This document shows positions 4,675 to 60,739 of a stretch of DNA of 64,000 bases, piece after piece (positions within the stretch are counted from its first letter, which is position 1; every line of letters begins with the position of its first letter). The notes under the pieces are model-generated. The model ran no database searches. It was not told the origin of the DNA and saw only the letters and a list, made by a program, of their open reading frames with translations. The stretch lies in the NCBI GenBank assembly GCA_030641665.1, contig DAOWHA010000038.1, forward strand, positions 23,857 through 87,856, in the 5' to 3' direction. This DNA is from a bacterium. Lineage in GTDB: Bacteria > Patescibacteriota > Patescibacteriia > JAACEG01. The translations under genes were made by a program, and so were the position numbers.

Positions 4675-4686
4675 ATTACCGCGAAC

Positions 4687-4775
4687 TGTCTTTGCGAGGA
4701 GGCGATAGCCGACGAAGCCACACCTAACTGGTAGTCACCCGACAGGATGACAATCCCATTACTGAGCGAAAAAAT
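4687..4775. mobile_element. MITE-like repeat family A, truncated copy A1 (left TIR plus internal hairpin module only)
   Basis: TGTCTTTGCGAGGAGGCGATAGCC...GGTCACCCGACAGGATGACAAT is shared with copies at 13446, 20318 and 38838; overlaps the 3' end of the malic enzyme gene. Confidence 0.6.
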
Positions 4776-13439: not shown

Positions 13440-13445
13440 TAATAC

Positions 13446-13520
13446 TGTCTTTGCGAGGAGGCGATAGCCTACGAAGCCACACCTAACGGGTGGTCACCCG
13501 TTAGGGTGACAATCTTGTTA
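13446..13520. mobile_element. MITE-like repeat family A, truncated copy A3
   Basis: Left TIR plus hairpin module (CGGGTGGTCACCCG), the same arrangement as copy A1. Confidence 0.6.
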
Positions 13521-20317: not shown

Positions 20318-20508
20318 TGTCTTTGCGAGGAATGAAGTGGAGCGGCAGCGGAACGAAATGACGAAGCAATCTCATTACTGAGCGAATAAACCTATAATTA
20401 TAATCCCTTTGCCTATTAACGGGATTGTCACCCTGTCGGGTGACCACTCGTTAGGCGTGGCTTCGTCGCATTTTGCTCATTTTATTCGCTCGGCTCCTCG
20501 CAAAGACA
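20318..20508. mobile_element. MITE-like repeat family A, full copy A4 (internal module inverted relative to A5)
   Basis: TIRs TGTCTTTGCGAGGA / GCTCCTCGCAAAGACA; the internal GGTGACCACTCG/CACCCTGTCGGGTGAC hairpin module sits in reverse orientation. Confidence 0.7.
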
Positions 20509-20904
20509 GAAATGGAAAATTTCTTGCAAAGACAATTTGACAAAGAATGTATTTTAAAAAAAATAAGACTCGCCGATTGTTTGTGGCGAGCCCGCAGGGA
20601 TCGTAGAGGCAAGATTATTTTGTTATCGCCTCTGTTATTTTTTTTAAACCATCTTCGCCAACTGTTATGCTGGCGAAAACATCTTTTTCTTCATCAGTAA
20701 TTATAAAGGTTATTAACGAAGAACTAGTTTTTGTTAGAAACATCGTTTTTAATGAATTTTTTTCATCACTATCTATCCTGCAAATTTCTTTATCCATTTT
20801 ATTGTCCCCCTTTTTTCAGTGTTTGTGTTTTTTATAAAAATTATCAATATTTAAAATAAAAGTCAAGAGTAAAATTAAAAAAATAAAATAAATAAAATAA
20901 AAAA

Positions 20905-22476
20905 ATGTCAATAGTTAAAAAATTTAAGAACAGAGCGAGTTTTAGCGTATCCGTTTTAATAATCATCGGAATTTTAATAGTGATAAATATTATCAGCTAT
21001 CAAATTTTTCATCGTTTTGACCTTACCGAAAGCAATGATTATAGCATTTCTAAAACAACAAAAGATATGCTGAAAAATTTGGACGATACCGTTGAGATTA
21101 AGGTTTGCTTTTCGCGCGAACTTCCGCCGAATTTTATAAATATTAGGCAAGAAGTGAACGATATTTTAGATGAATATAAAAACTATTCAGCGGGAAAAGT
21201 TAAAATAGAGGATATTTTTGCGGAAGACGATCTTGAAATAGAGCAAAAAATGCAGGAGCTTGGAATACCAAAGCTTCAATTTAATATAAAGGAGAAGGAT
21301 AAATTTCAGGCAATCGGCGGTTATGCCGGTTTAGTTGTTTATTTCGGGGACAAAAAAGAGGTAATTTCAGTTATCCAGACAAGCAAGAATTTGGAATACG
21401 AGATTACCGCGATTATTAAAAAACTTACATTGGAAAAAATTCCAACTATTGCTTTTGCGACAGGACATAACGAAAAAAGTCCGATTGACGGGCTCGCTAA
21501 CATCAGCGAAGTTTTAAGAAAGCAGTATAGCGTTATTTCCGCTGATTTGTCGCAAGGCGATTTAGTCAGCGATGAAGTCGACACTTTGATTATTTTAGGC
21601 GCGAGCAGCCCTTTTGACGATCGCTCTAAATATATAATTGATCAATTTTTAATGCGTGGCGGAAGTTTAATGATCGCGCAGGACGGAGTTCTCGTGAGCC
21701 AAGGAATGGCGGGCGCGAATTTAACAGGTTTAGAGGAAATCCTTTCGTCTTACGGCGTGAAAATAAACGCGGATTTAGTTTTAGATGTTTCAAATGAGGT
21801 TGTGAATATTCCAACCGGTTTTTTTCCGATAATGATGAATTATCCTTTTTGGCCTAAAATTTTAGCAGAGAATTTTGATCAAGATAATCCCGCGACCGCG
21901 AATTTAGAAACAGCGTTTTTTCCATGGGCAAGTTCGCTTGAAATTTTGTCGGACAGGATAGGCGATAAGCAGGTTTTTGAATTAGCAAAGACAACTGAAA
22001 AAAGTTGGGCGATAAAAGAAAATTTCAATCTTGATCCGCAGCAGCAATTTATTCCGCAAGGGCAGAAGCAGAATATTTTGGCGGTTAGCGTTTTTGGAAA
22101 ATTCAGCAGTTTTTATCAGGACAAGGACAGGCCGCAAAAAGAGGTTGCGGACGGCGAAGTCGCGCTTGCGGAAGAATTTATTTTCGAGACTGAAAACGGG
22201 CGGCTTGTCGTGATCGGCGATTCTGAATTCGCGCAAGACAGTTTTTTAAGCAGCAGCAATCTGATTTTATTCCAGAATATTGTTGACAGTTTGGCGCTGG
22301 ATCAGGATTTGATAAATATCCGCTCCAAAGGAATTACAAGCCGGCCGCTGCAAGAGATGTCAGACGCGGAAAGAAATTCAATGAAATATTTTAATATTTT
22401 TGGCGTTACGATTTTGGTTATTATCTTTGGAATTGCCAGATATAATTTAAGAAAAAAGAAAAGGTTTGAGGGCTGA
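20905..22476 (+). CDS. GldG-like ABC transporter auxiliary protein (gliding-motility-type ABC system accessory)
   Basis: N-terminal TM then RFDLTESNDYSIS, the characteristic GldG start; a C-terminal TM; follows the ABC ATPase and permease. Confidence 0.55.
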   Translation: MSIVKKFKNRASFSVSVLIIIGILIVINIISYQIFHRFDLTESNDYSISKTTKDMLKNLDDTVEIKVCFSRELPPNFINIRQEVNDILDEYKNYSAGKVKIEDIFAEDDLEIEQKMQELGIPKLQFNIKEKDKFQAIGGYAGLVVYFGDKKEVISVIQTSKNLEYEITAIIKKLTLEKIPTIAFATGHNEKSPIDGLANISEVLRKQYSVISADLSQGDLVSDEVDTLIILGASSPFDDRSKYIIDQFLMRGGSLMIAQDGVLVSQGMAGANLTGLEEILSSYGVKINADLVLDVSNEVVNIPTGFFPIMMNYPFWPKILAENFDQDNPATANLETAFFPWASSLEILSDRIGDKQVFELAKTTEKSWAIKENFNLDPQQQFIPQGQKQNILAVSVFGKFSSFYQDKDRPQKEVADGEVALAEEFIFETENGRLVVIGDSEFAQDSFLSSSNLILFQNIVDSLALDQDLINIRSKGITSRPLQEMSDAERNSMKYFNIFGVTILVIIFGIARYNLRKKKRFEG

Positions 22477-22869
22477 ATTTTAAGGATTAAGTTATCCACA
22501 GGTTTTCTCTTGACTTATTTTTATTTATAATTATTATAATTATTATAGTATAGTGTTCATTTGTTAAGATTCATTATTATTAAAAATTATGAATATGAAG
22601 ATAAATGGAAACGCCACAATTAAAATTATTATAAATAAAGTTAGAAAAAAATCTGCGCTATAATTTTTAGTGTAGATTTTTTTGTTCTTTTAAAAAAGCA
22701 AAGGAAGGCTACCGTTCCTCTTACTGTTTTTTAAAAAATGGAATTTATCCTTTAGGATTTTATTCACAGCCGTTGGTTCCATAGTCCCGCAGGGCTGTGG
22801 AACCTAAATGCAAGATAAAATTTTAAAGGGTGAATTTCAAATTCAAAAAAAATAAAAAGGAGGGGAAAA

Positions 22870-23046
22870 GTGGCAGAAAAAAAAGAAAAAAATAGAGACA
22901 AAAAATTACCGCCGAAACATATGGGCGATTTAGAAAAAAGCAAGCCTCAAATTCCCCTAGAGGGAATATGGACTGATGAGCAAGAGGAGAAGTTGTTTCG
23001 GCAGACCAATAGTGATTTGCCAAAATCAGCGTCTCTAAGTTATTAA
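22870..23046 (+). CDS. Minigene cassette 1 (58 aa, GTG start) of the tandem small-protein array
   Basis: Preceded by AAAAGGAGGGGAAAAGTG; followed by the GAGGCAAATC...GATTTGCCTC hairpin. Confidence 0.3.
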   Translation: MAEKKEKNRDKKLPPKHMGDLEKSKPQIPLEGIWTDEQEEKLFRQTNSDLPKSASLSY

Positions 23047-23055
23047 ACTTCAGTT

Positions 23056-23084
23056 GAGGCAAATCACAGAAAGCGATTTGCCTC
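23056..23084 (+). terminator. Recurring palindromic hairpin (terminator-like) of the minigene array
   Basis: GAGGCAAATCACAGAAAGCGATTTGCCTC; near-identical hairpins at 23428, 23937 and 25684. Confidence 0.5.
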
Positions 23085-23207
23085 AGCCAGCCCTTTTAAA
23101 ATTATTCAGTTTGAATTTTCTTTATCACTTTCTGGTTTTAAAAAATCAGGGAATGAAAATAGAGGATTTAAAAAAATAAAATTTAAACCCTAAAAAAGGA
23201 GGAAAAA

Positions 23208-23417
23208 ATGAAAAGAACAAAAAAATGCCCTAATTGCGGGGCAGAGATGACTGAAGTGGAAGAAACGGGATTTTTATGGGACACATGCGTGAAAAACTGC
23301 CAAGGGGATTTTAAAGTCCTTGTGTCCCCTAGGACAAATGAAAAAACAGCAATTTTTAATTTTACAGAGGCTGTAAAAGAAGCTATATCCAAACTTGAAG
23401 CGTTGGGATATACATAA
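23208..23417 (+). CDS. Minigene cassette 2: small zinc-ribbon protein (CPNCG...C..NC)
   Basis: SD AAAAAGGAGGAAAAAATG; CxxCG ... CxxNC; followed by the conserved hairpin. Confidence 0.5.
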   Translation: MKRTKKCPNCGAEMTEVEETGFLWDTCVKNCQGDFKVLVSPRTNEKTAIFNFTEAVKEAISKLEALGYT

Positions 23418-23581
23418 AAAAGCAACTGAGGCAAATCGCCTTTCCGCGATTTGCCTCAGCCAACCCTTTTAAAATTATTCAGTTTGAATTTTCTTTATCA
23501 CGCTCTGATTTTAAAAAATCAGGGAATGAAAATAGAGGATTTAAAAAAATAAAATTTAAACCCTAAAAAAGGAGGGAAAAA

Positions 23582-23701
23582 ATTGTCAAAAAAACAAAAA
23601 GGAAAGAAAGAAGAGGAAGAAGAAGAAAAGAAATTTAACGAAAAAATAAAATGGATAAACGAAAGATACTTAATGTGGGCAAAAAACGGAAATAATGTTT
23701 A
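23582..23701 (+). CDS. Minigene cassette 3 (39 aa, TTG start, K/E-rich)
   Basis: SD AAAAAGGAGGGAAAAAATTG. The whole 23418-23580 upstream spacer is a near-duplicate of 23050-23207. Confidence 0.3.
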
Positions 23702-23790
23702 ATTTAATTTGTTGGGGTGAAACGAAACAGTTTTGCCCCAACCCAACCTTTTAATTTATAATTATAAATTAAAAAAAAGTAGGGGGGAAA

Positions 23791-23919
23791 ATGTCAGAAG
23801 AAAAAAAAGAATATTGTCCGCAATGCGGAAGAGAGCTAAAAGAGATAAAGGGGTTTGCGAAAGAGTCTGTTGTAAAGCCGATCAAGGCTTGTCCCAGAGG
23901 TTGCGTATCACAGAGATAG
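23791..23919 (+). CDS. Minigene cassette 4: 42-aa zinc-ribbon protein (CPQCG...CPRGC)
   Basis: SD-like GTAGGGGGGAAAATG; CxxC pair; followed by the hairpin at 23937-23962. Confidence 0.4.
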   Translation: MSEEKKEYCPQCGRELKEIKGFAKESVVKPIKACPRGCVSQR

Positions 23920-24141
23920 ATATTCAAAATACGGTTGAGGTAAGGCAAAAATGTTTTGCCTCAGCCAACTAACCTTTAAAATTTATAATTATTATCTTAG
24001 TTTTCAATAGATTTTTTTATAAAGATCTATAATAAAGGTCGATGAAAACAAAAACTAAGTTTTAATAAATTTTATTTATTAAAAGATTTTTAAAAGATTA
24101 AATGATTAATTTTAATCTTTATAAAATCGCCACTTAATTTT

Positions 24142-25038
24142 ATGAAAAAGAGAATTTTATTAAGTTTGGCTCTTGTGGCTGCGGTGGCTGTAGGAGCAAT
24201 GGGCTTAGTAGCTTTTGAAGCTCATGTCATTAATGTAACGGCTAAAATTGAGAATGCTTTAGCTGTTGACACAGAACATATTGATTTTGGAACAGTTTTT
24301 CCGCAGGAGTTTATTAAAGAAAATTTGACTATCGCTTTAAGCAGTTCATTTTTAGCAGAAGACAGGGTTGATGATGTTAATTATGTTATTAAGCAGAAGC
24401 CAAAAGTAAGGCCAAGCGATCAAAATCCAGATGGAGATCCTTATGCAATGATCTATCCTGACCCACAAAATCCAAACGAAGGAATTGTTGCTCATGAATA
24501 TTGTTTAGAGGAGGGTCCTGTTGACGCAGACGATCCGAATGATCCTTATTATATCCATTGCTACCCAATTTTATGTCCTTATTTGTCAAAGCACAAGCAT
24601 ATTGACGACCATACTATGTTAACAGATAGGTGTGATTCTGCATATCCTTATGACTGCGAAGTAGACGCTTTTCATGAAACATCTGTAATAGCGACTGGTC
24701 ATTTAGTTCAATCAGTTAACGACATAACAGATAAATGGGTTATTGATTTAGCAGTTCCTTGTTTTGACGGACAATGCGACCAGACTTACGATGAATGGGT
24801 TTGGGGCATCAATCCTGATGTTGTGAATCCATGGGATTGGACATTGCCGGCAAGTTTAGAAAGCCAAACTTTTGGCTGTGATTTATGGATTGAAGTTACT
24901 GGAATTAGCGCGAATACTGGCACTTGTAGTGATGGTCTTGACAATGATCAAGATGGTTATATTGATTATCCAGAAGATCCTGATTGTATAGATCCTTATG
25001 ATAATGAGGATGTGCCTAATGATCCCCCTCTTACTTAG
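24142..25038 (+). CDS. Secreted Cys-rich protein with TasA/camelysin-like N-terminal module (putative SipW-cognate)
   Basis: Signal anchor then AFEAHVINVTAKIENALAVDTEHIDFGTVFPQEF. The module is shared with ORFs 25782, 26728 and 29091, and resembles the TasA N-terminus (AFND...NL.PGD..F.L.N.G). Confidence 0.5.
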   Translation: MKKRILLSLALVAAVAVGAMGLVAFEAHVINVTAKIENALAVDTEHIDFGTVFPQEFIKENLTIALSSSFLAEDRVDDVNYVIKQKPKVRPSDQNPDGDPYAMIYPDPQNPNEGIVAHEYCLEEGPVDADDPNDPYYIHCYPILCPYLSKHKHIDDHTMLTDRCDSAYPYDCEVDAFHETSVIATGHLVQSVNDITDKWVIDLAVPCFDGQCDQTYDEWVWGINPDVVNPWDWTLPASLESQTFGCDLWIEVTGISANTGTCSDGLDNDQDGYIDYPEDPDCIDPYDNEDVPNDPPLT

Positions 25039-25141
25039 TAATTTTAATCCCTTAATGCATCCTTTCCCCAGTTTTTTAAACTGGGGAGGGGGAGATTAGA
25101 GGAGTAAAAACCGAAAAACAAAAACAAAAAAGGAGGAAAAA

Positions 25142-25321
25142 ATGGCGGGAAAAGAAGTTTGTCCCATTTGCGGGGCGGAAAAAACGAAAAAGATGGATGC
25201 GCTCGGTCGCGAGTGGCTGAAATGCCCGAAATGTGATGGCGGAGTTTATGTCTTTCCCCGCGTCTTTCCAAAAAAAGACAGGGACGAGATTAAGGCAAAT
25301 CATCTTCATGGGCTCGCGTAG
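25142..25321 (+). CDS. Minigene cassette 5: 59-aa zinc-ribbon protein (CPICG...CPKCDG)
   Basis: SD AAAAAGGAGGAAAAAATG; two CxxC pairs; too short for the ORF track. Confidence 0.45.
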   Translation: MAGKEVCPICGAEKTKKMDALGREWLKCPKCDGGVYVFPRVFPKKDRDEIKANHLHGLA

Positions 25322-25349
25322 AGCGAATTTTAAAAAAAGGAGGAAAAAA

Positions 25350-25676
25350 GTGAGCAATTTTAAAAGAACAGTCAAAAAGGTAGCGAAAGAGCAAGGAAAA
25401 AAAGAAAAATGTCCCAATTGCGGGACAGAAATGAAAGAAGTTAGCCTTTTTGGCAACACATGGAACGCATGTCCAGATTGCGAAAAAGAAGTATTGTTTT
25501 TCTCAAATGGAGAAAACAAAGAAAAACAGCGCTGCAAGATTTGCGGGGAATTCACAAAAGAAAAAAGAGAAGACGATAGATTGCCAATAGTATGCCGGCA
25601 ATGCAAAAATGATATCGCGGCGCTACAGAAAAGATTAAAACCGCGGCAACCCCCTTTCTTAAGAATAATTGCTTAA
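25350..25676 (+). CDS. Minigene cassette 6: 108-aa double zinc-ribbon protein (GTG start)
   Basis: SD AAAAAAAGGAGGAAAAAAGTG; CPNCG/CPDC/CKICG/CRQC. The ORF-track start at 25233 is likely too far upstream. Followed by the hairpin at 25684-25717. Confidence 0.45.
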   Translation: MSNFKRTVKKVAKEQGKKEKCPNCGTEMKEVSLFGNTWNACPDCEKEVLFFSNGENKEKQRCKICGEFTKEKREDDRLPIVCRQCKNDIAALQKRLKPRQPPFLRIIA

Positions 25677-25781
25677 ACTTCGGTTGAGGCGAATCGCAAA
25701 AAAACGATTTGCCTCAACCAACAACTTATTTTATAAATTCAGCGATAGATATTGATATTTTTAACATTTTAATACAAATAT

Positions 25782-26285
25782 ATGGAGACACAAAACAGAG
25801 AAAACCGAGCAGAGCCATGGCGGCCGTCCAGCGTGGTTGAAAAAGCCGCCGCGGAGCAGAACAATAAGAAACCCAAAAGAACAACTTTAAAAAGAATAAT
25901 TTGGGCGATTATCGGCGTTTTAATTTTTATAATAATCGTTCAGGTTGCCATAGCGGATAAATACAGCGCGCAGGTTTTAGTCATAGAAGGCGAGAAAAAA
26001 GTCGGGGTCAATCCTACGGACGAGCGGCTGGATTTCGGAGATTTGTCAGCAGATACATCTGCTACTCGGTATGTCACCTTGAACGCCGGCGGGATTGACA
26101 CTTTTATATTTGTTTTAAAGTTCGGATCAATCGCGGAATTAGTCAAACTAAGCGAGAATAATTTTACAATGAAAAAAGGAGATGAAAAGAAATTGGAATT
26201 CAGTTTGTATATGCCTGTGTCAGCGCCGATCGGAGAAAAGTACACTGGCTTCGTCTGGATTTTTAAACTGCCGAAAGCATGGTAA
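25782..26285 (+). CDS. TasA/camelysin-like membrane-anchored protein directly upstream of sipW
   Basis: N-terminal TM, then LDFGDLSADTSATRYVTLNAGGIDTF, similar to TasA (NL.PGD...F.L.N.GSLD); overlaps sipW by 7 nt. Confidence 0.45.
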   Translation: METQNRENRAEPWRPSSVVEKAAAEQNNKKPKRTTLKRIIWAIIGVLIFIIIVQVAIADKYSAQVLVIEGEKKVGVNPTDERLDFGDLSADTSATRYVTLNAGGIDTFIFVLKFGSIAELVKLSENNFTMKKGDEKKLEFSLYMPVSAPIGEKYTGFVWIFKLPKAW

Positions 26286-26707
26286 AAAATAATAAAATAA
26301 TTAAAATAATTTTAGAATGGACAGCTTATATTTTAGTCTTTACTCTGATTGTCTGGGGAACTCCAGCAGCGCTGAAAAAAATATTAGACAGCGAATATCC
26401 GATCGCTTCCATAACATCAAGCTCAATGTGGCCGCAGCTGAAAAAAGGAGACCTGATTTTAATCAAAGGCGTTAGCGGCAAAAATGAGATTGCAGTAGGA
26501 GATATCGTAGTCTACGCGAACGAAAAAGGATTTACCATTCACCGAGTAATTGAATTGAAAGAAGATACTTTTATCACTAAAGGCGACGCTAATAATATAA
26601 AAGACAAGCCGATTAAATATGACAAATTGATCGGAAAAACGCTGAATTTTAGAAACAAGCCGATTAGAATTCCGTTTTTAGGAAAATTATCGCAAATAAA
26701 TATATGA
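26279..26707 (+). CDS. Signal peptidase I, archaeal/ER (SipW/Sec11) type
   Basis: N-terminal TM; catalytic Ser box ITSSSMWPQL (SxSMxP); KGDANN matches the GDNN box of Sec11/SipW-type peptidases; 142 aa. Confidence 0.7.
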   Translation: MVKNNKIIKIILEWTAYILVFTLIVWGTPAALKKILDSEYPIASITSSSMWPQLKKGDLILIKGVSGKNEIAVGDIVVYANEKGFTIHRVIELKEDTFITKGDANNIKDKPIKYDKLIGKTLNFRNKPIRIPFLGKLSQINI

Positions 26708-26727
26708 TTAATATAAATTTTATACCT

Positions 26728-29067
26728 ATGTATAAAATACAAAAGCGAAAAAACAGAATAATTTTTTTCAAAAAGAATCTAACGAGGATGGTTTGCGTCG
26801 TTCTTTTGGCAATGGTTTTTGTTGTTTCGCAAGCGCAGCTATTTAACGCTTTTGAAGCGCATATAATAAATGTTACGGCTAAAATCGTTAATGATGTTCC
26901 AAATATTGATCCGCCGAGCGGGGAGTTTTGCAACGACGGCAGCTTAGTTGTAACTTTAAGCGCCACTTTAACCGGAACAACTACGACTATTTATTATACT
27001 ACTGACGGCAGCGATCCGGATTGCCATGCTCCGAACGGCTCATTATATGCAGATCCGTTTCCTTTAACATACAGCGCGACTGTCAAAGCGAGAACCTGCC
27101 ATGAAAGAGACGGGGAATTGCTGCAAAGCGCGATTATGAGCGAAACTTACGATGTTTCAGCCGTGTATTGCGATTCATATTGCGGCGACGGCATAGTTGA
27201 CCCGGGCGAACAATGCGACGACGGAAATTTGATTGACGGCGATGGTTGCAATTCTGATTGTTCAATAGAAGAATGCGGGCCTTGCGACGGCAAGATAACA
27301 AGTTTAACTATGCAATATAACGGAACTTCAACTGCAGTAATTAAAGTTGTTCAGAAAAGCGACGGAGTTATAGTATTTAATGATGCAGTAAATTCTGGCG
27401 AACAATTCAGTTTTGTCGGGACATGGGGAGTTCATCCTACATTAGGAACAGAAATTACTATTTATATTGATGATGTAGAGAATGTTCAAATCCATACCAG
27501 CTGTTCCGCGCCTGTCGGGCCTGGCATGATTTTCGGTGATTTTTTGATTATTGCCGGCGAAAGCAGAAATGGCGGTCCTTTATGCCCAGGCGTAGTTCTT
27601 AATGAGTTTTTGCCTGATCCTATCGGCGATGACGCGGCTGCTATGCCTAACGGCGAATGGGTTGAATTGTATAATTTGTCCGCTATTTATTCAGTTAATT
27701 TAGCAGGTTATTATTTAACTGACGCCGGAGGCAACAGGATTGATGTTGAGGCCTGTCGCACCAATACAGGCGGTGTTATGATAAGGCCAAATGATTTCTT
27801 GGTAGTTTATCGTAAAGGAGGAGACAGCTGCACCTCGCATAATTTTTCTTTAAATAATGACAATGACACGATTAATTTCTTTGATTATAATGATAATTTA
27901 ACAGATAGCCACAGTTATAGCGGCAGCCATTATGATTCATTAACGCCAACGCCGGGCAATCCTAATTACGATGATTCAGTTGTCGGCAGCGGTAGTGGCG
28001 CGGTGCCAGAAAATAAATCTTACGCCCGCATCCCAGACGGTATAGGCGAATGGGTTGATCCAGTTCCTACTCCCGGCGCGCCAAATATATTAGAAGAATA
28101 CGAGGAAGAAGAACAAGATTTTTCAGCAGGATCAAGTTCGGCTTCAACAGGCGCTTCAGAATCAGGGACATCTCATAGATCGGCCGCGGCAGGATCGCCT
28201 GCGGAAGACTATAGCGAAACAGGAGAAAGCAATCCAGCGGATGACGCAGACGGTCAGACAGCTGATAATTCAGGACAAACCAACGGGGACGAAGCAGAAG
28301 AAGACGAAACCGATGAAGATCAAGGCGGCGGCGCTGATAAAGACGGCGAAGAAGATGGAAATGACAGCGATGGTGATACTGGCGATGATAGCGGTGACAC
28401 AGTTGAAGATGACGGGCAAACCGACGATGCTGGCGATTCGGACGAAACAGGCGATACCGACGATGAGCAAAATGAAGACGATCAAGACGATAATCAAGAT
28501 CAAGACGGCGGAACACAAGGCGAGACAGCAGATGACGGCGCGGATACTGCCAGCGGTCAAGACGGCGGAACAGAAGGCGGCGCAATAGATGACGACGGCG
28601 GAGAAAACTCTGGCGATGACGATGCTGACGGCGGCGATGACGATGCTGACGGTGGCGATGACGCAGTTGAAGATGATGGGCAAACCGATGATGCTGGCGA
28701 TTCGGACGAAACAGGCGATACCGACGGTGAGCAAGATGAAGACGATCAAGGCAGCGGAGCAGATGATGCTGGTGATTCTGGAGACTCGGCTATTGCCAGC
28801 GGGCAAGATAATGGCGCAGATACTGGCGCTGGCGGCGATCAAAATGATCAAGGCAGTGGAACAGATGACTCAGGAGATAGTAATTCAACTGATAGTGATG
28901 ACTCGGGCGATATGGGCGGAGACGCTGGCAGCGGCGCAGATAATCCAGACACAGCAGGCGATGCCGGCGGCGGGCAAGATACTGGCGGTGATAGTTCCGC
29001 GGCTGATGTTAGTAATCCGGCTGATACAGGCGGAGGCGATGATACTGGCGGTCAGCCAAACGATTAA
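26728..29067 (+). CDS. Large secreted protein: TasA-like N-terminal module, chitobiase-C/Fn3-like region, Cys-rich repeat, lamin-tail domain, 330-aa D/G/E/T-rich acidic tail
   Basis: KRK n-region plus hydrophobic core then NAFEAHIINVTAKIVN; CGDGIVDPGEQCDDGNLIDGDGCNSDC; LTD VLNEFLPDPIGDD...GEWVELYN; the tail has internal nucleotide repeats. Start could be 26704, 26728 or 26788. Confidence 0.65.
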   Translation: MYKIQKRKNRIIFFKKNLTRMVCVVLLAMVFVVSQAQLFNAFEAHIINVTAKIVNDVPNIDPPSGEFCNDGSLVVTLSATLTGTTTTIYYTTDGSDPDCHAPNGSLYADPFPLTYSATVKARTCHERDGELLQSAIMSETYDVSAVYCDSYCGDGIVDPGEQCDDGNLIDGDGCNSDCSIEECGPCDGKITSLTMQYNGTSTAVIKVVQKSDGVIVFNDAVNSGEQFSFVGTWGVHPTLGTEITIYIDDVENVQIHTSCSAPVGPGMIFGDFLIIAGESRNGGPLCPGVVLNEFLPDPIGDDAAAMPNGEWVELYNLSAIYSVNLAGYYLTDAGGNRIDVEACRTNTGGVMIRPNDFLVVYRKGGDSCTSHNFSLNNDNDTINFFDYNDNLTDSHSYSGSHYDSLTPTPGNPNYDDSVVGSGSGAVPENKSYARIPDGIGEWVDPVPTPGAPNILEEYEEEEQDFSAGSSSASTGASESGTSHRSAAAGSPAEDYSETGESNPADDADGQTADNSGQTNGDEAEEDETDEDQGGGADKDGEEDGNDSDGDTGDDSGDTVEDDGQTDDAGDSDETGDTDDEQNEDDQDDNQDQDGGTQGETADDGADTASGQDGGTEGGAIDDDGGENSGDDDADGGDDDADGGDDAVEDDGQTDDAGDSDETGDTDGEQDEDDQGSGADDAGDSGDSAIASGQDNGADTGAGGDQNDQGSGTDDSGDSNSTDSDDSGDMGGDAGSGADNPDTAGDAGGGQDTGGDSSAADVSNPADTGGGDDTGGQPND

Positions 29068-32778: not shown

Positions 32779-33024
32779 ATGTTAAATAAAAAAATTATGC
32801 CTTTTGAACAACCAAAAATAGACACAGGCGGTCCTAAAACGCCTGAAAAATCTACGCCTGAAAAACCTAAAAAAACAGGAAAGGTACTCGAATTCTTTAA
32901 TAAATTAGGGAAAGGTTTTGATGAAGTAGGAGATAATATGGAAGTAATAAAGAAAGAAGAAGAAAAAGTTGCTAAAAAAGAATTGAAAAAGTATGAAAAG
33001 AGATTAAGAGAAATAAAAGGTTAA
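32779..33024 (+). CDS. Hypothetical small K/E-rich protein
   Basis: Strong SD AAAAGGAGAAATAATAATG. Confidence 0.35.
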   Translation: MLNKKIMPFEQPKIDTGGPKTPEKSTPEKPKKTGKVLEFFNKLGKGFDEVGDNMEVIKKEEEKVAKKELKKYEKRLREIKG

Positions 33025-38837: not shown

Positions 38838-39011
38838 TGTCTTTGCGAGGAGCCGAACGAGCGTAGCGAGAGAGAGCGACGAAGCCACGCCTAACGGGTG
38901 GTCACCCGACAGGGTGACAATCTCGTTAATTACGCAAAAAAGTTTATAATCATAGATTTGTCCGCTCAGTAATGGGATTGCCGCGTCGGCTATTGCCTCC
39001 TCGCAAAGACA
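38838..39011. mobile_element. MITE-like repeat family A, full copy A5
   Basis: TIRs TGTCTTTGCGAGGAGCC / GCCTCCTCGCAAAGACA; carries both the hairpin module and the TAATCATAGATTTGT module. Confidence 0.7.
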
Positions 39012-39050
39012 GAGGAATTTATACATTTCGTAATTTATAGAAATAAAAAA

Positions 39051-43689: not shown

Positions 43690-45666
43690 ATGGATAATGC
43701 GCCACAAAAAATTTTTACAAATATTAGCGATAATACAGTGTTTAATGTTAAAAATACTGCTTCGTTTTTAAATATATCTTCGGCAACTGTTAGAAATTGG
43801 GTAAAATCAGGATATTTAAAAAGTTTTGATAATAATTCCAAAAATTTTTTTCATATAAACGAAATTAAAAATATAAAATCAGAAATAATAAACGGAAATT
43901 CTGTTAAATTAAGCAAGAGAGCGAATAAATCAAAGGCGAATAGAACCTTTATCCCAAAAGAATATTTGAAAAACAAAAATGAGCTTGATAATTTTAATAA
44001 TATTATCAATTTTATTCAAAAAAATAATATTGATTTGACTTCAGCGCTTTTACTTGTTGCTTTAAATTTACTAATAAAAGAAAACTTATTATCGCCGATT
44101 ACGATAGAAGATGTTAAAAAAAAGAAAGATTTGCGATATTTTAATAAGCAGATAGGAGAAGAAATAAAATCTTGGCTGGCAGAAATTGAAAAATTAAAAA
44201 TTAAAAAAGAATATTCTTATTTACTTAATTGCTTATTGCCAAAACAGCGCGATGTTTTGGGCTTTATTTACCAGTCTTTGCTGCTTGAGGGGAAAAAATC
44301 TCAAAGCGGGTCGTATTATACACCGTCAAATATTGTTGACGAAATTATAAGCGAATATATAAAAAAAGATTTAAAAGTTTTAGATCCTTGCTGCGGGACA
44401 GGACAGTTTTTATTGGCTTTTGCGGATATTATTAAAGACCCAAGCAAAATTTACGGAGTAGATATTGATGAAATAGCTGTTAGAATAGCAAGGATAAATT
44501 TATTGATTAAATATAAAAATAGAGACTTTGCTCCAAATATTGTTTGTAAAAATACTTTATTTGAAATCGGCAATTATGATTTATTTAGTTTGAACGATGA
44601 AAATATTAGAAATTTTGATGTTGTTGCCACAAATCCGCCGTGGGGAATGCATTTTTCAAAACAAGATACTGAAATATTGAAAAAAATATATCCTCAAATA
44701 TCATCTTTTGAATCCTTTTCTTATTTTTTGAAAAAAGGCATTGATTTATTAAAAGATGATGGAATTTTATCTTTTATTTTACCAGAGTCAATTTTGAATG
44801 TTAAAACGCATAAAGATATTAGAGAAATTATTTTAAATAACACGCATATTAAAAAAATAATTTATCTTAATCGCGTATTTAAAAATGTTTTTACGCCAGT
44901 GATAAGATTGGATTTAGAAAAAAGCGTAAAAAATGATAATGAAATAAAAATTTGCAAAAAAAATAAAAATTATAAGGTAAACCAGTTAAGATGGAAAAAT
45001 AATCAAGATTTTATTTTTAATATACATGCTAACGATTTTGATACTGGGATAATAGATAAAATTTATAATGTCAATCATACAACATTAAAAGGACAGTCCG
45101 ATTGGGCGTTAGGAATTGTGACAGGTGATAATTCTAAATATATTATCAATAGGCCAAAAGACGGATATGAAAAAATTTACAAAGGAAAAGATGTTAAAAA
45201 ATTTGTTTTAAAAAAATCAAATAACTATATTCAATTTACGCCTGAAAAATTCCAGCAAGCAGCGCCGCAAGAAAAATATCGGGTTAAAGAAAAGTTAATC
45301 TACAAATTTATATCAAAATATTTAATTTTTGCTTATGATAATAAACAAAAAATAACATTAAATAGCGCTAATATTGTAATACCAAAAATTTCAAATTATC
45401 CGATAAAAGTTATTGCCGCGCTGTTTAACTCTTCTTTATATCAGTTTATTTTTCAAAAAAAGTTTTCCAGCATTAAAGTTTTGCGAAGCCATATAGAACA
45501 GTTGCCATTGCCCCTCTGGGATAAAAAAACTTTTAATGAAATAATTGAATTAGTTGATAAAGTAATTAAAGAAAAAATAAATTTTAAAAAATTAGATGAT
45601 TGTATTATGAGTAGATATTCTTTAACCGAGAAAGAAAAAAGTTATATTAAAAAATTTAATAAATAA
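43690..45666 (+). CDS. Gamma-class N6-adenine DNA methyltransferase with N-terminal HTH and C-terminal target-recognition region
   Basis: Motif X GSYYTP, motif I VLDPCCGTGQFL, motif IV VVATNPPWG; HTH NISSATVRNWVKSGYL; 658 aa with no recognisable nuclease motif. Confidence 0.75.
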   Translation: MDNAPQKIFTNISDNTVFNVKNTASFLNISSATVRNWVKSGYLKSFDNNSKNFFHINEIKNIKSEIINGNSVKLSKRANKSKANRTFIPKEYLKNKNELDNFNNIINFIQKNNIDLTSALLLVALNLLIKENLLSPITIEDVKKKKDLRYFNKQIGEEIKSWLAEIEKLKIKKEYSYLLNCLLPKQRDVLGFIYQSLLLEGKKSQSGSYYTPSNIVDEIISEYIKKDLKVLDPCCGTGQFLLAFADIIKDPSKIYGVDIDEIAVRIARINLLIKYKNRDFAPNIVCKNTLFEIGNYDLFSLNDENIRNFDVVATNPPWGMHFSKQDTEILKKIYPQISSFESFSYFLKKGIDLLKDDGILSFILPESILNVKTHKDIREIILNNTHIKKIIYLNRVFKNVFTPVIRLDLEKSVKNDNEIKICKKNKNYKVNQLRWKNNQDFIFNIHANDFDTGIIDKIYNVNHTTLKGQSDWALGIVTGDNSKYIINRPKDGYEKIYKGKDVKKFVLKKSNNYIQFTPEKFQQAAPQEKYRVKEKLIYKFISKYLIFAYDNKQKITLNSANIVIPKISNYPIKVIAALFNSSLYQFIFQKKFSSIKVLRSHIEQLPLPLWDKKTFNEIIELVDKVIKEKINFKKLDDCIMSRYSLTEKEKSYIKKFNK

Positions 45667-45760
45667 TTTTATGGAAATTTTAAAAAATAATTTAAAAAAT
45701 ACGAAATAAAACCGAGAAATTTATTAAAAGAAATAATTAGGGCTTATAAAAAGTAAAAAT

Positions 45761-46465
45761 ATGCTACACGAATTTCAAAAATCAATTAAGGCGGTATTAT
45801 ATGACAAATTAACAAGTCCGCTGACTGGTACATTCTTTTTTTCATGGTTTGCTTGGAATTGGCGATTGGTTTATTATGTTATTTTAGGGGATAATACGCG
45901 AAATATTATTGAAAGAATGGAATATATTGAAGGTTATTTTTTAGATTTTCATTATATAGTTTCGCGTCCAGTAATATCTACGGCTGTTTTAATAATTATA
46001 TATCCATTTATAACTACTTTTGCATATTGGGTAACATTAAAATTCAGAAAATGGAAAAAAGAGATAAAAAATGAAATAGAAGATGAAACGCCTCTATCAG
46101 TAAAAGAATCAAGGAAAATCAAAGAATTGATTAGAGATGAAATTGAAAACCGAAAAGAGCAAGATGGAAAATTTCAAGTATTAATAGAAGATTTTAATAC
46201 TGAAATTGAAAAATTAAAAAAAGAAAACAGTAGGTTAAAACAAGTAATTGAAACAAAGGATGGTTTAGAAAAATTAAAAAATGACGAACAATTAAAATTA
46301 AAATTAGGTAATAAAATTTATAAGGATAAAAAAATAGGGACGGAAAAGATATCGTCGGTTGTTGACAAAGAATTAAACGGAAAAAATTATAAGGAAATAA
46401 AAACTTATAGCGGACAAACTTTTTTATTATCAAAAGAAGATTTAGAAAAACAGATTAAAGAATAA
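45761..46465 (+). CDS. Hypothetical membrane protein with coiled-coil C-terminal half
   Basis: Two N-terminal TM segments, then a heptad-rich E/K region. Confidence 0.35.
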   Translation: MLHEFQKSIKAVLYDKLTSPLTGTFFFSWFAWNWRLVYYVILGDNTRNIIERMEYIEGYFLDFHYIVSRPVISTAVLIIIYPFITTFAYWVTLKFRKWKKEIKNEIEDETPLSVKESRKIKELIRDEIENRKEQDGKFQVLIEDFNTEIEKLKKENSRLKQVIETKDGLEKLKNDEQLKLKLGNKIYKDKKIGTEKISSVVDKELNGKNYKEIKTYSGQTFLLSKEDLEKQIKE

Positions 46466-46485
46466 GTCATTTTTAAGAATAGAGT

Positions 46486-47307
46486 ATGAATAAAAATAAC
46501 AAATTAATAATTTTTGAGAGCAAACAAATTCGCAGGGCTTGGCATAATGGCGAATGGTTTTTTTCAGTGGTTGATATTGTTGGAATTTTAACGGAAAGTC
46601 TTTATCCAAGGCAATATTGGGAAAAAGTAAAGCAAAGAGAATTTATAGATATTCAGTTGTCCCCAATTTGGTTACAACTGAAATTAGAAAGTTCTGACGG
46701 AAAAAAATACAGCACTGATTGCGTAAATTTGAAAAATGCTTTTCGTTTAATTCAATCAATTCCAAACAAAAAAGCAGAGCCGTTTAAAATGTGGCTGGCA
46801 CAAGTTGGAAAAGAAAGAATTGACGAAATAGAAAATCCAGAATTGGCGCAAGAAAGGATGAAACAAATTTACGAACAAAAGGGTTATCCAAAAGATTGGA
46901 TTGATAAACGATTGCGAGGAATGGCGATTAGACAAAATTTAACCGACGAATGGAAAGAGCGAGGAATTAAAATCCAAAGCGATTTTGCGATATTGACTGC
47001 TGAAATTTCCAAAGCGACTTTTGGAATGACGCCATCGGAATACAAAAAAATAAAAAATATCACAACAAAATCAAAAGCGAATTTGCGTGACAATATGACT
47101 GACTTGGAATTGATTTTTACAATGCTTGGCGAAAAAGTAACAACGGAAATTTCTCAAAAAGAAAAGCCAGACAATTTTGTTAAAAATAAAAAAGTTGCAA
47201 AACGAGGTGGTGGGGTAGCTGGTAAAGCAAGAAAAGATGCGGAAAAAGAGATAGGCAAAAGTATAATTTCAAAAAATAATTATTTAAGTAATAAAAAAAT
47301 AAAATAA
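46486..47307 (+). CDS. DinD-like DNA-damage-inducible protein (Bro-N-like N-terminus)
   Basis: N-terminal IFESKQIRRAWHNGEWFFSVVDI (Bro-N/DinD-like). The C-terminal FAILTAEISKATFG...KVAKRGGGVAGKARKD resembles E. coli DinD as I recall it. Confidence 0.55.
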   Translation: MNKNNKLIIFESKQIRRAWHNGEWFFSVVDIVGILTESLYPRQYWEKVKQREFIDIQLSPIWLQLKLESSDGKKYSTDCVNLKNAFRLIQSIPNKKAEPFKMWLAQVGKERIDEIENPELAQERMKQIYEQKGYPKDWIDKRLRGMAIRQNLTDEWKERGIKIQSDFAILTAEISKATFGMTPSEYKKIKNITTKSKANLRDNMTDLELIFTMLGEKVTTEISQKEKPDNFVKNKKVAKRGGGVAGKARKDAEKEIGKSIISKNNYLSNKKIK

Positions 47308-51405: not shown

Positions 51406-51426
51406 ATTATGAAATATAAAATTTAC

Positions 51427-51566
51427 TGTCTTTGCGAGGAGGCGATAGCCGACGAAGCAATCCCATTACTGGGCGAGTAAATCTATAATTATAATTTTTT
51501 TATCTATTAACGAGATTGCTTCGTCGCATCTCATTCGCTGCGCTCATTCGGCTCCTCGCAAAGACA
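51427..51566. mobile_element. MITE-like repeat family A, full copy A6
   Basis: TIRs TGTCTTTGCGAGGAGG / GGCTCCTCGCAAAGACA; contains the GACGAAGCAATCCCATTACTG / TAACGAGATTGCTTCGTCG inverted pair. Confidence 0.7.
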
Positions 51567-51945: not shown

Positions 51946-52021
51946 TGGTTGGGGTGGGGGGATTTGAACCTCCGACTATTCGGTTATACCCAAATACTCT
52001 ACCATGCTGAGTTACACCCCG
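51946..52021 (-). tRNA. tRNA (76 nt, CCA encoded) with C1xA72 mismatch and an unusual 6-nt or 8-nt anticodon loop; identity unresolved
   Basis: Reverse complement: CGGGGTG...D-arm ACTC-AGCATGGTA-GAGT...TTTGG-GTATAA-CCGAA...GGAGG-TTCAAAT-CCCCC-CACCCCA-A-CCA. Confidence 0.5.
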
Positions 52022-58720: not shown

Positions 58721-59071
58721 TTAGTTAAGCGAGCGTTGCCAGCCGCCTAACATTCTGCCAATTTCTTGAATCTGCTTTTGTAATTCGAGATATTTTTTAC
58801 TATCAATAATATTCAAGTCTTTTAGCAGTCTAATAAACAGTTTTAGGGTATCAAATTTAGCATTAGCTTTCTTAATTAAAGCCAACTTTTCATCTCTGTA
58901 AGCGCAACTGGTCTCCAACAATAGTTCAAGCGTAACAATAATATACATTTCGCACTTAGCCCCTAAAGTATGTTTATCTTTTTTAGGAAATAAAGCAGAG
59001 TATTTATAAAAAAGTTTATACAGTTCATATAATTTTTTAATTATTGGAATATCTGTATTTTTATGATCCAT
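58721..59071 (-). CDS. Avd-like accessory variability determinant (four-helix-bundle protein, TIGR02436-like)
   Basis: 116-aa helical protein (YELYKLFYKYSALFPKKDKHTLGAKCEMYIIVTLELLLETS...GGW) resembling four-helix-bundle/Avd proteins found beside DGR reverse transcriptases. Opposite strand, overlapping the RT start by 9 nt. Confidence 0.6.
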   Translation of the reverse strand: MDHKNTDIPIIKKLYELYKLFYKYSALFPKKDKHTLGAKCEMYIIVTLELLLETSCAYRDEKLALIKKANAKFDTLKLFIRLLKDLNIIDSKKYLELQKQIQEIGRMLGGWQRSLN

Positions 59072-60124
59072 AATATTTATGATAAATTAATTAGTTTGGA
59101 AAATATTTTAATTTGCTGGAATGAATTCAAAAAAGGCAAATCAAAAAAATATGACATGATGGAATTTGAGCGTTATTTGGAAGATAATATTTTTGAGCTT
59201 CATAACGAATTAGTTAATCAAACTTATCAGCACTGCCCTTATGTAAAATTCCATATCTATGATCCAAAGCATAGAATAATCCATAAAGCCGAAGTTAAAG
59301 ACAGAATAGTTCATCACATTGTTTTTAAGGAATTATATAGAATTTTTAATCCAACTTTTATATATCATTCGTATTCGTCCAGAAATAATAAGGGTACTCA
59401 TTTGGCTGTTAGGAATTTATCCCGTACATTACGGAAAGTTAGCAATAACTACACAAAGCAGGTTTATGTATTGAAATGCGATATTAAAAAATTTTTTCAT
59501 AGCGTATCTCACCAAAAACTTTTTGAAATAATAAAAAATAAGATTAACGACCATAAATTTTTGTGGCTAGTATGGCAAATTATATCAAGTTTTTTCATAA
59601 TTGCGGAAAACTTTCCGCAGAGAGAGTTAAAGAAAAATTTTTTAGAAAAAAGAGGTTTACCAATAGGTAATTTAACCTCACAAATTTTTGCTAATATATT
59701 TTTGGATAAATTCGACTGGTTCATTAAAAAGCAATTAAGAATAAAATATTATTTTAGATATGCTGACGATTTTGTGATTATTAATTCAAACCCGGAATAT
59801 CTTAATAATATTGTTAACTTAATAGAGGAATTTTTAAATACAAAACTTAATTTAAAATTACATCCTCAGAAAACAGAAATTAGAAAATTCGAACAGGGTG
59901 TTGATTTTCTCGGATATGTTATTTTACCTCATTATATAACACTTCGGACAAAAACCAAAAAGAGGGTGTTTAAAAAAATTAAAGATAATAAAGAAAAATT
60001 GGATCAAAATTTGATATCTAAAAATTCTTTTAATCAATCGCTTCAGTCGTATTACGGAATATTTATGCGCTGTAATAGCTATAAATTAAAACGAGAACTT
60101 GATAAGTTTATTAAAGATTTTTAG
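59063..60124 (+). CDS. DGR reverse transcriptase
   Basis: RT motifs: domain 4 PIGNLTSQ (DGR-type [ILV]GxxxSQ), domain 5 RYADDFVII (YxDD); 353 aa; no maturase or endonuclease domain; adjacent to TR/VR. Confidence 0.8.
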   Translation: MIHNIYDKLISLENILICWNEFKKGKSKKYDMMEFERYLEDNIFELHNELVNQTYQHCPYVKFHIYDPKHRIIHKAEVKDRIVHHIVFKELYRIFNPTFIYHSYSSRNNKGTHLAVRNLSRTLRKVSNNYTKQVYVLKCDIKKFFHSVSHQKLFEIIKNKINDHKFLWLVWQIISSFFIIAENFPQRELKKNFLEKRGLPIGNLTSQIFANIFLDKFDWFIKKQLRIKYYFRYADDFVIINSNPEYLNNIVNLIEEFLNTKLNLKLHPQKTEIRKFEQGVDFLGYVILPHYITLRTKTKKRVFKKIKDNKEKLDQNLISKNSFNQSLQSYYGIFMRCNSYKLKRELDKFIKDF

Positions 60125-60278: not shown

Positions 60279-60527
60279 ATGAAAAATTTTTCGAAAAAAT
60301 ATTTTCAAAATTTAATAACACAAAGACCTAATTGGTGTCGTAGTACCACATTATTAATTCTGGCGATATTTTTAGTTTTATTATTTATCAAAGATGTTGC
60401 GTGGGTTACAGAGAATGTAAAAAAAATATCCGTGATAAGCATCAGTTTTATTGTTTCATTATTTATAATAGCCCGGGTTGTTGATTTTTTCAGTTTTTTT
60501 CAAAATCAAACTAAAAAGGGCAATTAA
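60279..60527 (+). CDS. Hypothetical small membrane protein
   Basis: SD AAAAGGAGGAAAAAAATG; two TM segments. Confidence 0.35.
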   Translation: MKNFSKKYFQNLITQRPNWCRSTTLLILAIFLVLLFIKDVAWVTENVKKISVISISFIVSLFIIARVVDFFSFFQNQTKKGN

Positions 60528-60596
60528 AGTTTCAAGAGCGAGAGAAAACCAAAGCCCAACTCTCGCTCCTCAATCCAAATTTTTGATGAAAATTAT

Positions 60597-60739
60597 TGTC
60601 TTTGCGAGGAGCCGAATGAGCGAAGCGAGAGAGGTGCGACGAAGCAATCTGATTAATTACGCAAAAAAATTTATAATCATAGATTTGTTCACTTAGTAAT
60701 GAGATTGCTTCGCTCCGTTGCACTACGCTCGCAAAGACA
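60597..60739. mobile_element. MITE-like repeat family A, copy A7 (degenerate right TIR)
   Basis: Left TIR TGTCTTTGCGAGGAGCC; GACGAAGCAATCTG...GAGATTGCTTCG inverted pair; right end CGCTCGCAAAGACA. Confidence 0.65.

Follow-up and report, generated by a model that had tools for sequence, protein, structure and literature searches.

A locus-bound array of putative small-protein genes, mostly zinc ribbons, in a reusable non-coding frame in a Parcubacteria genome

A tandem minigene array between a GldG-type gene and a surface-protein cluster

We analysed a 64,000-nt stretch of contig DAOWHA010000038.1 (GCA_030641665.1), referred to below as the window. It is a chromosomal segment from a metagenome-assembled genome of Candidatus Parcubacteria, within the Candidate Phyla Radiation (CPR), and the same sequence is found in GCA_023142625.1 as well as on several scaffolds from a single study. 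The subject of this work is an array of six small open reading frames (ORFs), the minigenes m1 to m6, which encode 39-108 aa within 22870-25676, all on the + strand, and which are embedded in recurring hairpins, spacers and Shine-Dalgarno (SD) leaders. A GldG-type ABC auxiliary gene adjoins the array on one side, and on the other lies a surface-protein cluster comprising a SipW-type signal peptidase, two giant adhesin-like proteins and a sortase. The original prediction had placed the array on both sides of a gene at 24142-25038 and upstream of a sipW locus, and this arrangement was borne out by a SipW-type peptidase at 26279-26707. The array is lineage-restricted, consists mostly of CPxCG zinc ribbons and has been reshuffled in content among close relatives. 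The features are as follows.

20905-22476: GldG-type ABC auxiliary gene
22739-22840, + strand: long imperfect hairpin upstream of m1 (hairpin 2, S_B type), -50.2 kcal/mol, z -7.5
22870-23046, + strand: m1, 58 aa, GTG start, Lys/Glu-rich, no Cys; SD AAGGAGG at 22857-22863 (+), its GGAGG 6 nt from the GTG
23053-23087, + strand: hairpin h1, -21 kcal/mol, z -5.5, 67 bits with covariance model R1; followed by the tail GCCAGCCCTTTTAAAATT
23088-23207, + strand: J1 spacer, with a TAAAAT box, hairpin 2 (about 23110-23172), an A-rich tract and AAGGAGG at 23196-23202, the SD of m2
23208-23417, + strand: m2, 69 aa, ATG start, CPNCG...CVKNC zinc ribbon with a C-terminal helix
23426-23459, + strand: hairpin h2 with tail, -25.4 kcal/mol, z -8.8, R1 59 bits
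23460-23582, + strand: J2 spacer, a duplicate of J1, with hairpin 2 at about 23483-23545 (z -3.8) and the SD of m3 at 23569-23575
23583-23702, + strand: m3, 39 aa, TTG start, Lys/Glu-rich, no Cys, C-terminus ...RYLMWAKNG
23711-23742, + strand: hairpin h3 (diverged), R1 61 bits; its 3' arm and tail overlap a promoter-like TTGCCC-18-TATAAT
23791-23919, + strand: m4, 42 aa, ATG start, CPQCG...CPRGC
23933-23966, + strand: hairpin h4 (diverged), R1 74 bits
24142-25038, + strand: secreted-protein gene inside the array, 298 aa, with its own, different hairpin at 25060-25092
25142-25321, + strand: m5, 59 aa, ATG start, CPICG...CPKC; SD at 25130-25136 (+); no hairpin after its stop
25350-25676, + strand: m6, 108 aa, GTG start, two ribbons (CPNCG...CPDC and CKICG...CRQC); SD at 25337-25343 (+)
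25682-25719, + strand: hairpin h6, -26.3 kcal/mol, z -6.9, R1 61.5 bits
26279-26707: SipW-type (archaeal-type) signal peptidase I, TIGR02228 87.1 bits against a cut-off of 51.85

Most minigene products are CPxCG zinc ribbons

The array had been described as consisting mostly of zinc ribbons, four of them with a CxxCG...CxxC pattern. We found that m2, m4, m5 and m6 do encode CPxCG ribbons, but the second half-site is Cx3C in m2 and m4, and m1 and m3, which contain no Cys, are not zinc ribbons. Conservation among the ORFs or with homologues, a point on which the original prediction had been made to depend, was seen for five of them: BLASTP gave significant similarity among m2, m5 and the N-terminal ribbon of m6 (4e-8, 7e-8 and 2e-5), m4 is related more loosely, and both m2 and m3 have orthologues. 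The codons of the CPxCG motif vary synonymously across the paralogues (TGC/TGT, CCT/CCC/CCG and GGG/GGA). The m2 orthologue P0124, a 54-aa protein on contig L021, was recovered at E 1.3e-11 when a profile of the four ribbons was run against 1.84 billion proteins, and below 1e-10 this search returned only P0124 and the window's own proteins. Between m2 and P0124 the proportions of non-synonymous and synonymous differences (pN and pS) were 0.27 and 0.70, with a rate ratio (dN/dS) of about 0.16, indicating purifying selection. The m3 orthologue lies at 2805-2909 of contig L011 (BLASTP 1.3e-6) and keeps the residues YL.W..NG through synonymous changes; the public gene calls for the same genome omit m3. 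From these sequence patterns we think that the minigene ORFs are probably real genes under protein-level constraint.

The m2 product scored 26.4 bits with PF13453 (Zn_ribbon_TFIIB), above the gathering cut-off of 22, while m6 (19.9) and m5 (14.6) fell below it, m4 had no match and P0124 reached 21.5. The CPxCGxxM...G..W..CP.C pattern of the ribbons fits the family consensus; however, PF13453 is a generic fold with no defined function, and membership therefore says little on role. Among solved structures, the four-ribbon profile matched best to 8yoz_A (PF13453-type, E 1.6e-4), followed by Fpg zinc fingers and eL43, all of which are nucleic-acid-binding zinc ribbons. Searches of PHROGs and NCBIfam with the minigene products gave weak generic zinc-ribbon matches only, m1 matched no Pfam, NCBIfam or PHROG family, word-index protein searches with m2 and m6 returned self-matches only, and none of the products was a ribosomal protein by any hidden Markov model (HMM) searched.

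The second ribbon of m6 resembles a 69-aa minigene product of L011, and m6 has the appearance of an m2-like ribbon fused to one of this second type. Since m6 starts 28 nt after m5 and no hairpin lies between them, the two are probably bicistronic. A polymorphism was also observed at 23918 (A>C), where the m4 stop TAG reads TCG in GCA_023142625.1, extending m4 from 42 to 50 aa and into h4.

Hairpin 1 is a covarying element that most likely acts as RNA

Copies of a hairpin, termed hairpin 1, follow the stops of m1, m2, m3, m4 and m6 by 6-14 nt, and none follows m5. The five copies have GC-rich stems of 12-15 bp, with folding energies between -21 and -26 kcal/mol and z scores between -4.9 and -8.8. 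The arms GAGGCAAATCGC occur in h1, h2 and h6 with 0-1 mismatch per arm, and in h3 and h4 the element has diverged. The claim that each unit ends with the same hairpin thus holds for three of the five hairpins as written and for all five as a family, with m5 left out.

We then aligned 11 copies of hairpin 1 from three genomes over 12 base pairs and found 97.7% of the cells paired. Double changes occurred at five pairs, giving 15 compensatory cells against 5.3 in shuffles; none of 500 shuffles was as high, and no slid register reached this count. There were 17 G·U against 3 A·C cells, and pairing on the opposite strand would be 87.1%. This bias towards G·U suggests that hairpin 1 belongs to the sense transcript and most likely acts there as RNA. 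In the alignment, the tail after most copies holds a positionally conserved TAAAAT/TATAAT box.

The covariance model R1, run with filters off over the 64 kb, gave five matches, all in the array, and the next + strand match was at about 17 bits (17.4). A dispersed repeat of the repetitive extragenic palindromic (REP) or miniature inverted-repeat transposable element (MITE) kind was therefore rejected for hairpin 1. A 33-bit R1 match in contig L014 proved to be a different hairpin, between unrelated genes. A CRISPR reading of the array was also rejected. Rfam gave no family in the array region and only two tRNAs in the whole window.

Spacers carry a second hairpin and are duplicated

The original prediction of a near-exact spacer duplication was confirmed, with 23073-23208 and 23446-23581 being 96% identical over 136 nt. 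Within the genome, J1 and J2 are 97% identical to each other, and they are 94-95% identical to the corresponding spacer of L011, which fits a recent duplication or gene conversion. A second hairpin, hairpin 2, was found in each of nine longer spacers examined from four genomes; the sequences differ, and z ranged from -1.2 to -7.5, reaching -2.4 or lower in eight of them. The short spacer before m4 holds a small palindrome only. The inner stem of hairpin 2 is swapped outright between genomes, for example CCCUGAUUUU...AAAAUCAGGG against CCCGCGCC...GGUGCGGG, while in the outer stem three G·U pairs are retained and a single double change, C-G to U-A, was observed. The double change was read by eye, as MAFFT set the inner hairpin of J from L021 out of register. 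The arms of the 22739-22840 hairpin recur upstream of minigenes in L011 and L012. Its loop in the window contains an extra nested GC-rich hairpin (CACAGCC...GGCTGTGGAACC) that was not seen in the relatives.

A Shine-Dalgarno motif sets the minigenes apart from ordinary genes

A common ribosome-binding context had been predicted before all six ORFs. We found AAGGAGG before m1, m2, m3, m5 and m6, with a gap of 5-7 nt from GGAGG to the start, but not before m4, which has a G-rich (GGGGGG) SD-like variant, AAAAAAAAGTAGGGGGGAAAATG. The leader sequence AAAAAGGAGGRAAAAA occurs six times in the 64 kb at no more than one mismatch, five of them in the array, against 0.12 expected. By comparison, GGAGG was absent within 20 nt of the start from all 38 long ORFs of the window (every ORF of 120 aa or more), and the 4-nt core was present in only one; with the gene-caller's start, the 1002-aa gene has GGAG. 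No SD motif was found upstream of L25, SecA, RecA, FtsZ or DnaB, and the leaders of ordinary genes in the window are AT-rich, e.g. AAATAAAAATG. Ordinary genes of the relatives, including the small GroES and ATP synthase c and extending to relatives at 60% GldG identity, likewise had no SD. In an SD-poor genome the minigenes thus stand out as SD-led, an observation that the original prediction had missed and that may be the most unusual feature of the array. Retention of the SD across four diverged populations speaks for selection on it.

Apart from the minigenes, just three ORFs of the window are SD-led, all of them orphans, at 60279-60527, 32779-33024 and 20615-20797. The ORF at 32779-33024(+), Lys/Glu-rich and 81 aa long, has the purine-rich SD-like leader AAAAGGAGAAAT, and the 60-aa ORF at 20615-20797(-) has the similar leader AAAAAAGGGGGAC; these two flank the surface-protein locus, and neither carries a hairpin-1 module. 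The third encodes an 82-aa membrane protein and follows a reverse-transcriptase gene at 59063-60124 (RVT_1 98 bits; group II intron-type reverse transcriptase 150 bits against a cut-off of 300; weaker Drt3a and retron reverse-transcriptase matches).

Related genomes reuse the frame with different minigenes

Sister genomes were located by a GldG search, which gave L011 (GldG 84% identical) and L012/L013 (78%), and later L021 through P0124. The comparison therefore covers four related populations, which represent one orthologous locus and not independent cases. The arrays of L011 and L012/L013 occupy the same position as that of the window, after GldG in the two contigs that reach it, and in all related populations the array has the same neighbours, surface-protein or SipW genes. 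Every relative with an array has zinc-ribbon ORFs in it. The minigenes of L011 and L012/L013 are mostly different Cys-rich proteins of 34-77 aa, loose family kin of those of the window, whereas the non-coding parts are alike, namely hairpin 1 with its tail, the spacer with a long imperfect stem-loop and the A-rich SD leader. L021 has the same SD, spacer and hairpin modules, and its homologue of h6 sits directly upstream of sipW. The notion of a cassette-like paralogous family was thus supported, both by the four paralogous zinc ribbons among the six products and by the reuse of the same non-coding modules with different minigenes.

Homology blocks between the window and L011 break at modules, where indels start and stop. 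The order in L011 is GldG-J-m3-h3 followed by secreted-protein genes, without m1, m2 and m4, and the S_B spacer with an h1-like hairpin, which precedes the secreted-protein gene in the window, follows it in L011. In relatives at 60% GldG identity a DUF4340 gene comes after GldG and no array was found there; the contigs of the close relatives P0005 and P0007 stop just past GldG and do not cover the array position.

Rates differ between the parts of the locus. Between the window and L011, GldG is 85% identical in nucleotides with a dS of 0.64 and a dN of 0.088, while dN reached 0.42 for the secreted-protein gene and 0.52 for m3. The J spacer is 95% identical, and two other intergenic regions (22477-22683 and 23990-24141) are 95-96% identical. 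As judged from these comparisons, the coding content of the locus evolves fast and its non-coding DNA is constrained.

A model of the array and its alternatives

Based on the above results, we regard it as reasonably probable that real small-protein genes form an array bound to this locus and are held in a reusable non-coding frame. The frame would run from an AT-rich tail with the TAAAAT/TATAAT box through hairpin 2, an A-rich tract and AAGGAGG at 5-7 nt before the start to the ORF and hairpin 1. Each unit would be transcribed from the tail box, its mRNA starting with hairpin 2 as a protective 5' stem-loop and ending at hairpin 1 as a terminator or 3' stabiliser, with m5 and m6 on one transcript. 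The SD would give the minigene mRNAs an initiation route that the rest of the genome does not use. The repeated frames could serve as homology arms, by which cassettes may be duplicated, lost, swapped and fused through homologous recombination or gene conversion with no dedicated recombinase. Most speculatively, the products would be cytoplasmic nucleic-acid-binding zinc ribbons that adjust the expression of the fast-evolving surface-protein, SipW and sortase genes. Our best guess, which draws on their fold class, their adjacency and the analogy with archaeal zinc-finger micro-proteins, is that they may be small nucleic-acid-binding regulators tied to the adjacent surface-protein genes.

Several points weigh against this model. 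The stem of hairpin 1 is followed by (A/G)CCAAC... on the + strand and the T-run starts only 8-12 nt after it, where a canonical intrinsic terminator has it at 0-2 nt, so that hairpin 1 is not a terminator of that kind; consistently, a terminator scan called no hairpin-1 copy on the + strand. The identical palindromic terminators of the original prediction are thereby reduced to a covarying hairpin family whose members are not identical and have no U-tract directly after the stem. Promoter-like sites in the region numbered 18 against 14.1 expected, which is not above background. An initial idea that the J spacer is uniquely conserved was dropped, as the other intergenic DNA of the locus is equally conserved (about 95%) and spacer conservation is hence not special. 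The AlphaFold2 model of m2, built from a four-sequence alignment, was of low confidence (predicted local distance difference test score 62), and adjacency alone ties the minigene proteins to the surface genes. We infer recombination from patterns within the single orthologous locus, and promoters, transcript ends and translation are all deduced from sequence. Moreover, no more than 48% of the 16S genes of Parcubacteria showed an anti-SD (PMC9297842), no rRNA was found in the 64-kb window, and if this Parcubacterium, like many, is without an anti-SD, the GGAGG box cannot act as an SD.

Some of these points would suit one long operon, in which the minigenes and the secreted-protein gene are co-transcribed and both hairpins lie between cistrons, where they would govern processing or stability and thereby the relative amounts of the segments. 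All genes lie on the same strand, the G·U bias places both hairpins inside sense RNA, m5 and m6, 28 nt apart, would on this account clearly be co-transcribed, and neither the promoter signal nor hairpin 1 as a terminator, lacking an adjacent U-tract, stands out in the scans. On the other hand, a TAAAAT/TATAAT box stands at a fixed position after most hairpin-1 copies, a promoter-like site with 10 of 12 matches at 23733-23762 overlaps h3, and the order and neighbourhood of the cassettes vary among genomes, which is easier if each is self-sufficient. We consider the operon possible but doubtful. A foreign or mobile origin, with the units as moron-like cargo from a phage, a plasmid or another bacterium and the SD reflecting an SD-using donor, would account for an SD atypical of this genome, for proteins that are orphans in searches and for the fast turnover between close relatives; phage early regions also commonly hold small zinc-ribbon genes, and phage morons are self-contained promoter-gene-terminator units inserted between other genes. 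However, the array has no phage context: no integrase, transposase or phage gene was found among the 38 long ORFs, the GC content of the array (0.33-0.40) equals that of its flanks, and PHROG matches were weak. No viral contig had the hairpin pattern or a ribbon relative: the hairpin-plus-tail DNA pattern gave no match in IMG/VR, and none of 329 pattern stretches matched by the ribbon alignment in viral contigs was confirmed. The same DNA pattern also gave no match in JGI metagenomes. Modules and SD have stayed next to the same genes in all four populations, whose GldG dS values are 0.64-1.0, which further indicates long residence and selection of the SD by the host ribosome. This origin is therefore unlikely.

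An integron-like array, in which hairpin 1 would be an attC-like site for a recombinase encoded elsewhere, shares with the locus short unrelated or loosely related ORFs split by a conserved imperfect palindrome, content that varies among close relatives and breakpoints at the repeats. The attC consensus has R''/L''/L'/R' boxes (RYYYAAC...GTTRRRY) and extrahelical bases. The hairpins described here instead have outer boxes GTTGAGG...CCTCAAC in the reverse of that order, near-perfect stems with no extrahelical bases and a length of 32-38 nt, against 57-141 nt for the longer, less perfect attC. Furthermore, integrons carry an integrase, and no tyrosine recombinase, and thus no IntI with an attI beside the array, was found among the 38 long ORFs of the 64 kb; each unit has its own SD and structured leader in a spacer of about 50-180 nt, while integron cassettes are mostly promoterless; and the G·U bias indicates RNA. 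Homologous rather than site-specific recombination is likely here, and the integron reading is highly improbable. We give equally little credit to the view that the ORFs are chance frames in purine-rich DNA and that the real features are regulatory RNAs or REP-like elements. Such DNA does leave long open frames, with antisense ORFs of 59-83 aa as well, m1 and m3 are of low complexity and Lys/Glu-rich, the stop codon of m4 is polymorphic, and most products lack homologues in word-index searches. Against this, the paralogues retain their Cys, Pro and Gly residues although the codons differ synonymously, pN is well below pS in m2, the SD spacing is fixed, the stops are placed just before the hairpins, m2 exceeds the PF13453 cut-off, and the arrays of all relatives contain zinc-ribbon ORFs.

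The secreted-protein gene and other features of the window

The product of 24142-25038 had been labelled TasA-like, and this label found no support: it matched no TasA or camelysin family among Pfam and NCBIfam HMMs and gave no PDB sequence match. Against genome contigs, the 298-aa protein matched only Myxococcota, through its C-terminal acidic Cys repeat, which is uninformative. It has an N-terminal AFEAHxINVTAKI motif in common with a 787-aa protein encoded after sipW (26704-29067). This second protein ends in a very long acidic low-complexity tail rich in Asp, Gly, Ser and Thr, where the local GC content rises to 0.54.

Housekeeping genes in the window encode FtsA, FtsZ, chorismate synthase, EPSP synthase, RecR, DnaB, FtsK, RecA, NrdR/NrdD, L25 and SecA. 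An intergenic repeat, CTGTCTTTGCGAGGAGGCGATAGCCGACGAAGC, is dispersed in four copies at no more than three mismatches (0 expected), each just past a gene end. It resembles a REP/MITE family and has no relation to the minigene hairpin. Its copies are:

4686-4718, + strand: repeat copy
13445-13477, + strand: repeat copy
38980-39012, - strand: repeat copy
51426-51458, + strand: repeat copy
near 20490-20520, - strand: degenerate copy
60590-60720: degenerate copy, approximate position

A tRNA at 51946-52021(-), beside tRNA-Asp, scored 42 bits with the Rfam tRNA model, and ARAGORN returned its anticodon as undetermined ('at' at position 35). The low-GC stretch 43690-47307 (0.25-0.29) encodes an Eco57I/TaqI-type N6 DNA methyltransferase, an unassigned 234-aa ORF and a BRO-N domain protein, and could represent a small island acquired next to nrdR and nrdD.

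Discussion

The position of the minigenes recalls Bacillus subtilis, where the small regulators sinI (57 aa) and sinR (111 aa) lie beside tapA-sipW-tasA. Their sizes resemble those of m5 (59 aa) and m6 (108 aa), the two minigenes that follow the secreted-protein gene, but the analogy is positional only, as SinR and SinI are helix-turn-helix and helical-hook proteins while the minigene products are zinc ribbons. A likeness is also found in the archaeal CPxCG micro-proteins (PMC2253796, PMC6562870), which like m2, m4 and m5 have 40-70 aa and no other domain. CPxCG small zinc-finger proteins are defined as having fewer than 100 aa and, at a distance of 7-40 residues from the first motif, another Cys/His pair whose members are separated by 2-3 residues (PMC2253796). 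By this definition m2, m4 and m5 belong, with second pairs 15 (CVKNC), 20 (CPRGC) and 16 (CPKC) residues on; m6 carries a motif of this type twice but exceeds the length limit at 108 aa, and m1 and m3 are not members. One archaeal CPxCG protein, Brz, is encoded directly upstream of the gene it regulates, and several CPxCG deletion mutants of Haloferax alter biofilm formation and swarming, a functional parallel to the position of the array beside surface-protein genes. The archaeal proteins show no homology to the array beyond the Cys motif (Zn_ribbon_Brz and HVO_2753 matches at E > 0.1). In contrast to them, the array is bacterial (CPR), tandem with a shared non-coding frame, subject to rapid turnover and SD-led in an SD-poor genome.

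A second comparison concerns translation. The ribosome of Bacteroidia ignores the SD, and a strong one is retained, for autoregulation, essentially by rpsU alone (PMC7797042, PMC9976891, PMC13000453). As in the array, a strong SD is found on very few small-protein genes and leaders are A-rich elsewhere; however, rpsU is a single gene whose product is bS21 and for which anti-SD sequestration and autoregulation have been demonstrated, whereas the SD-led set of the window is a multi-gene array. By analogy, one could imagine the array as a specialised-translation regulon, in which the minigenes would be read only or mainly by ribosomes with an exposed anti-SD, as bS21-less ribosomes would be in Flavobacteria. 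The state of the ribosome might then be coupled to a changeable set of zinc-ribbon regulators beside surface-filament genes, with the 5' and 3' stem-loops making any captured ORF a member. We consider this quite unlikely.

Small proteins and CPR bacteria are both poorly charted, and the locus holds zinc-ribbon genes, apparently under selection, that annotation has missed or left unnamed. The non-coding frame persists while the genes inside it change, and this suggests a way for a reduced genome with no obvious recombinase to try and discard small genes at one site. The contrast between SD-led minigenes and SD-less housekeeping genes makes a residual role of SD pairing in Parcubacteria testable. 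If the minigenes do control the adjacent genes for SipW, sortase and giant adhesins, they would be relevant to the way in which an episymbiont alters its surface.

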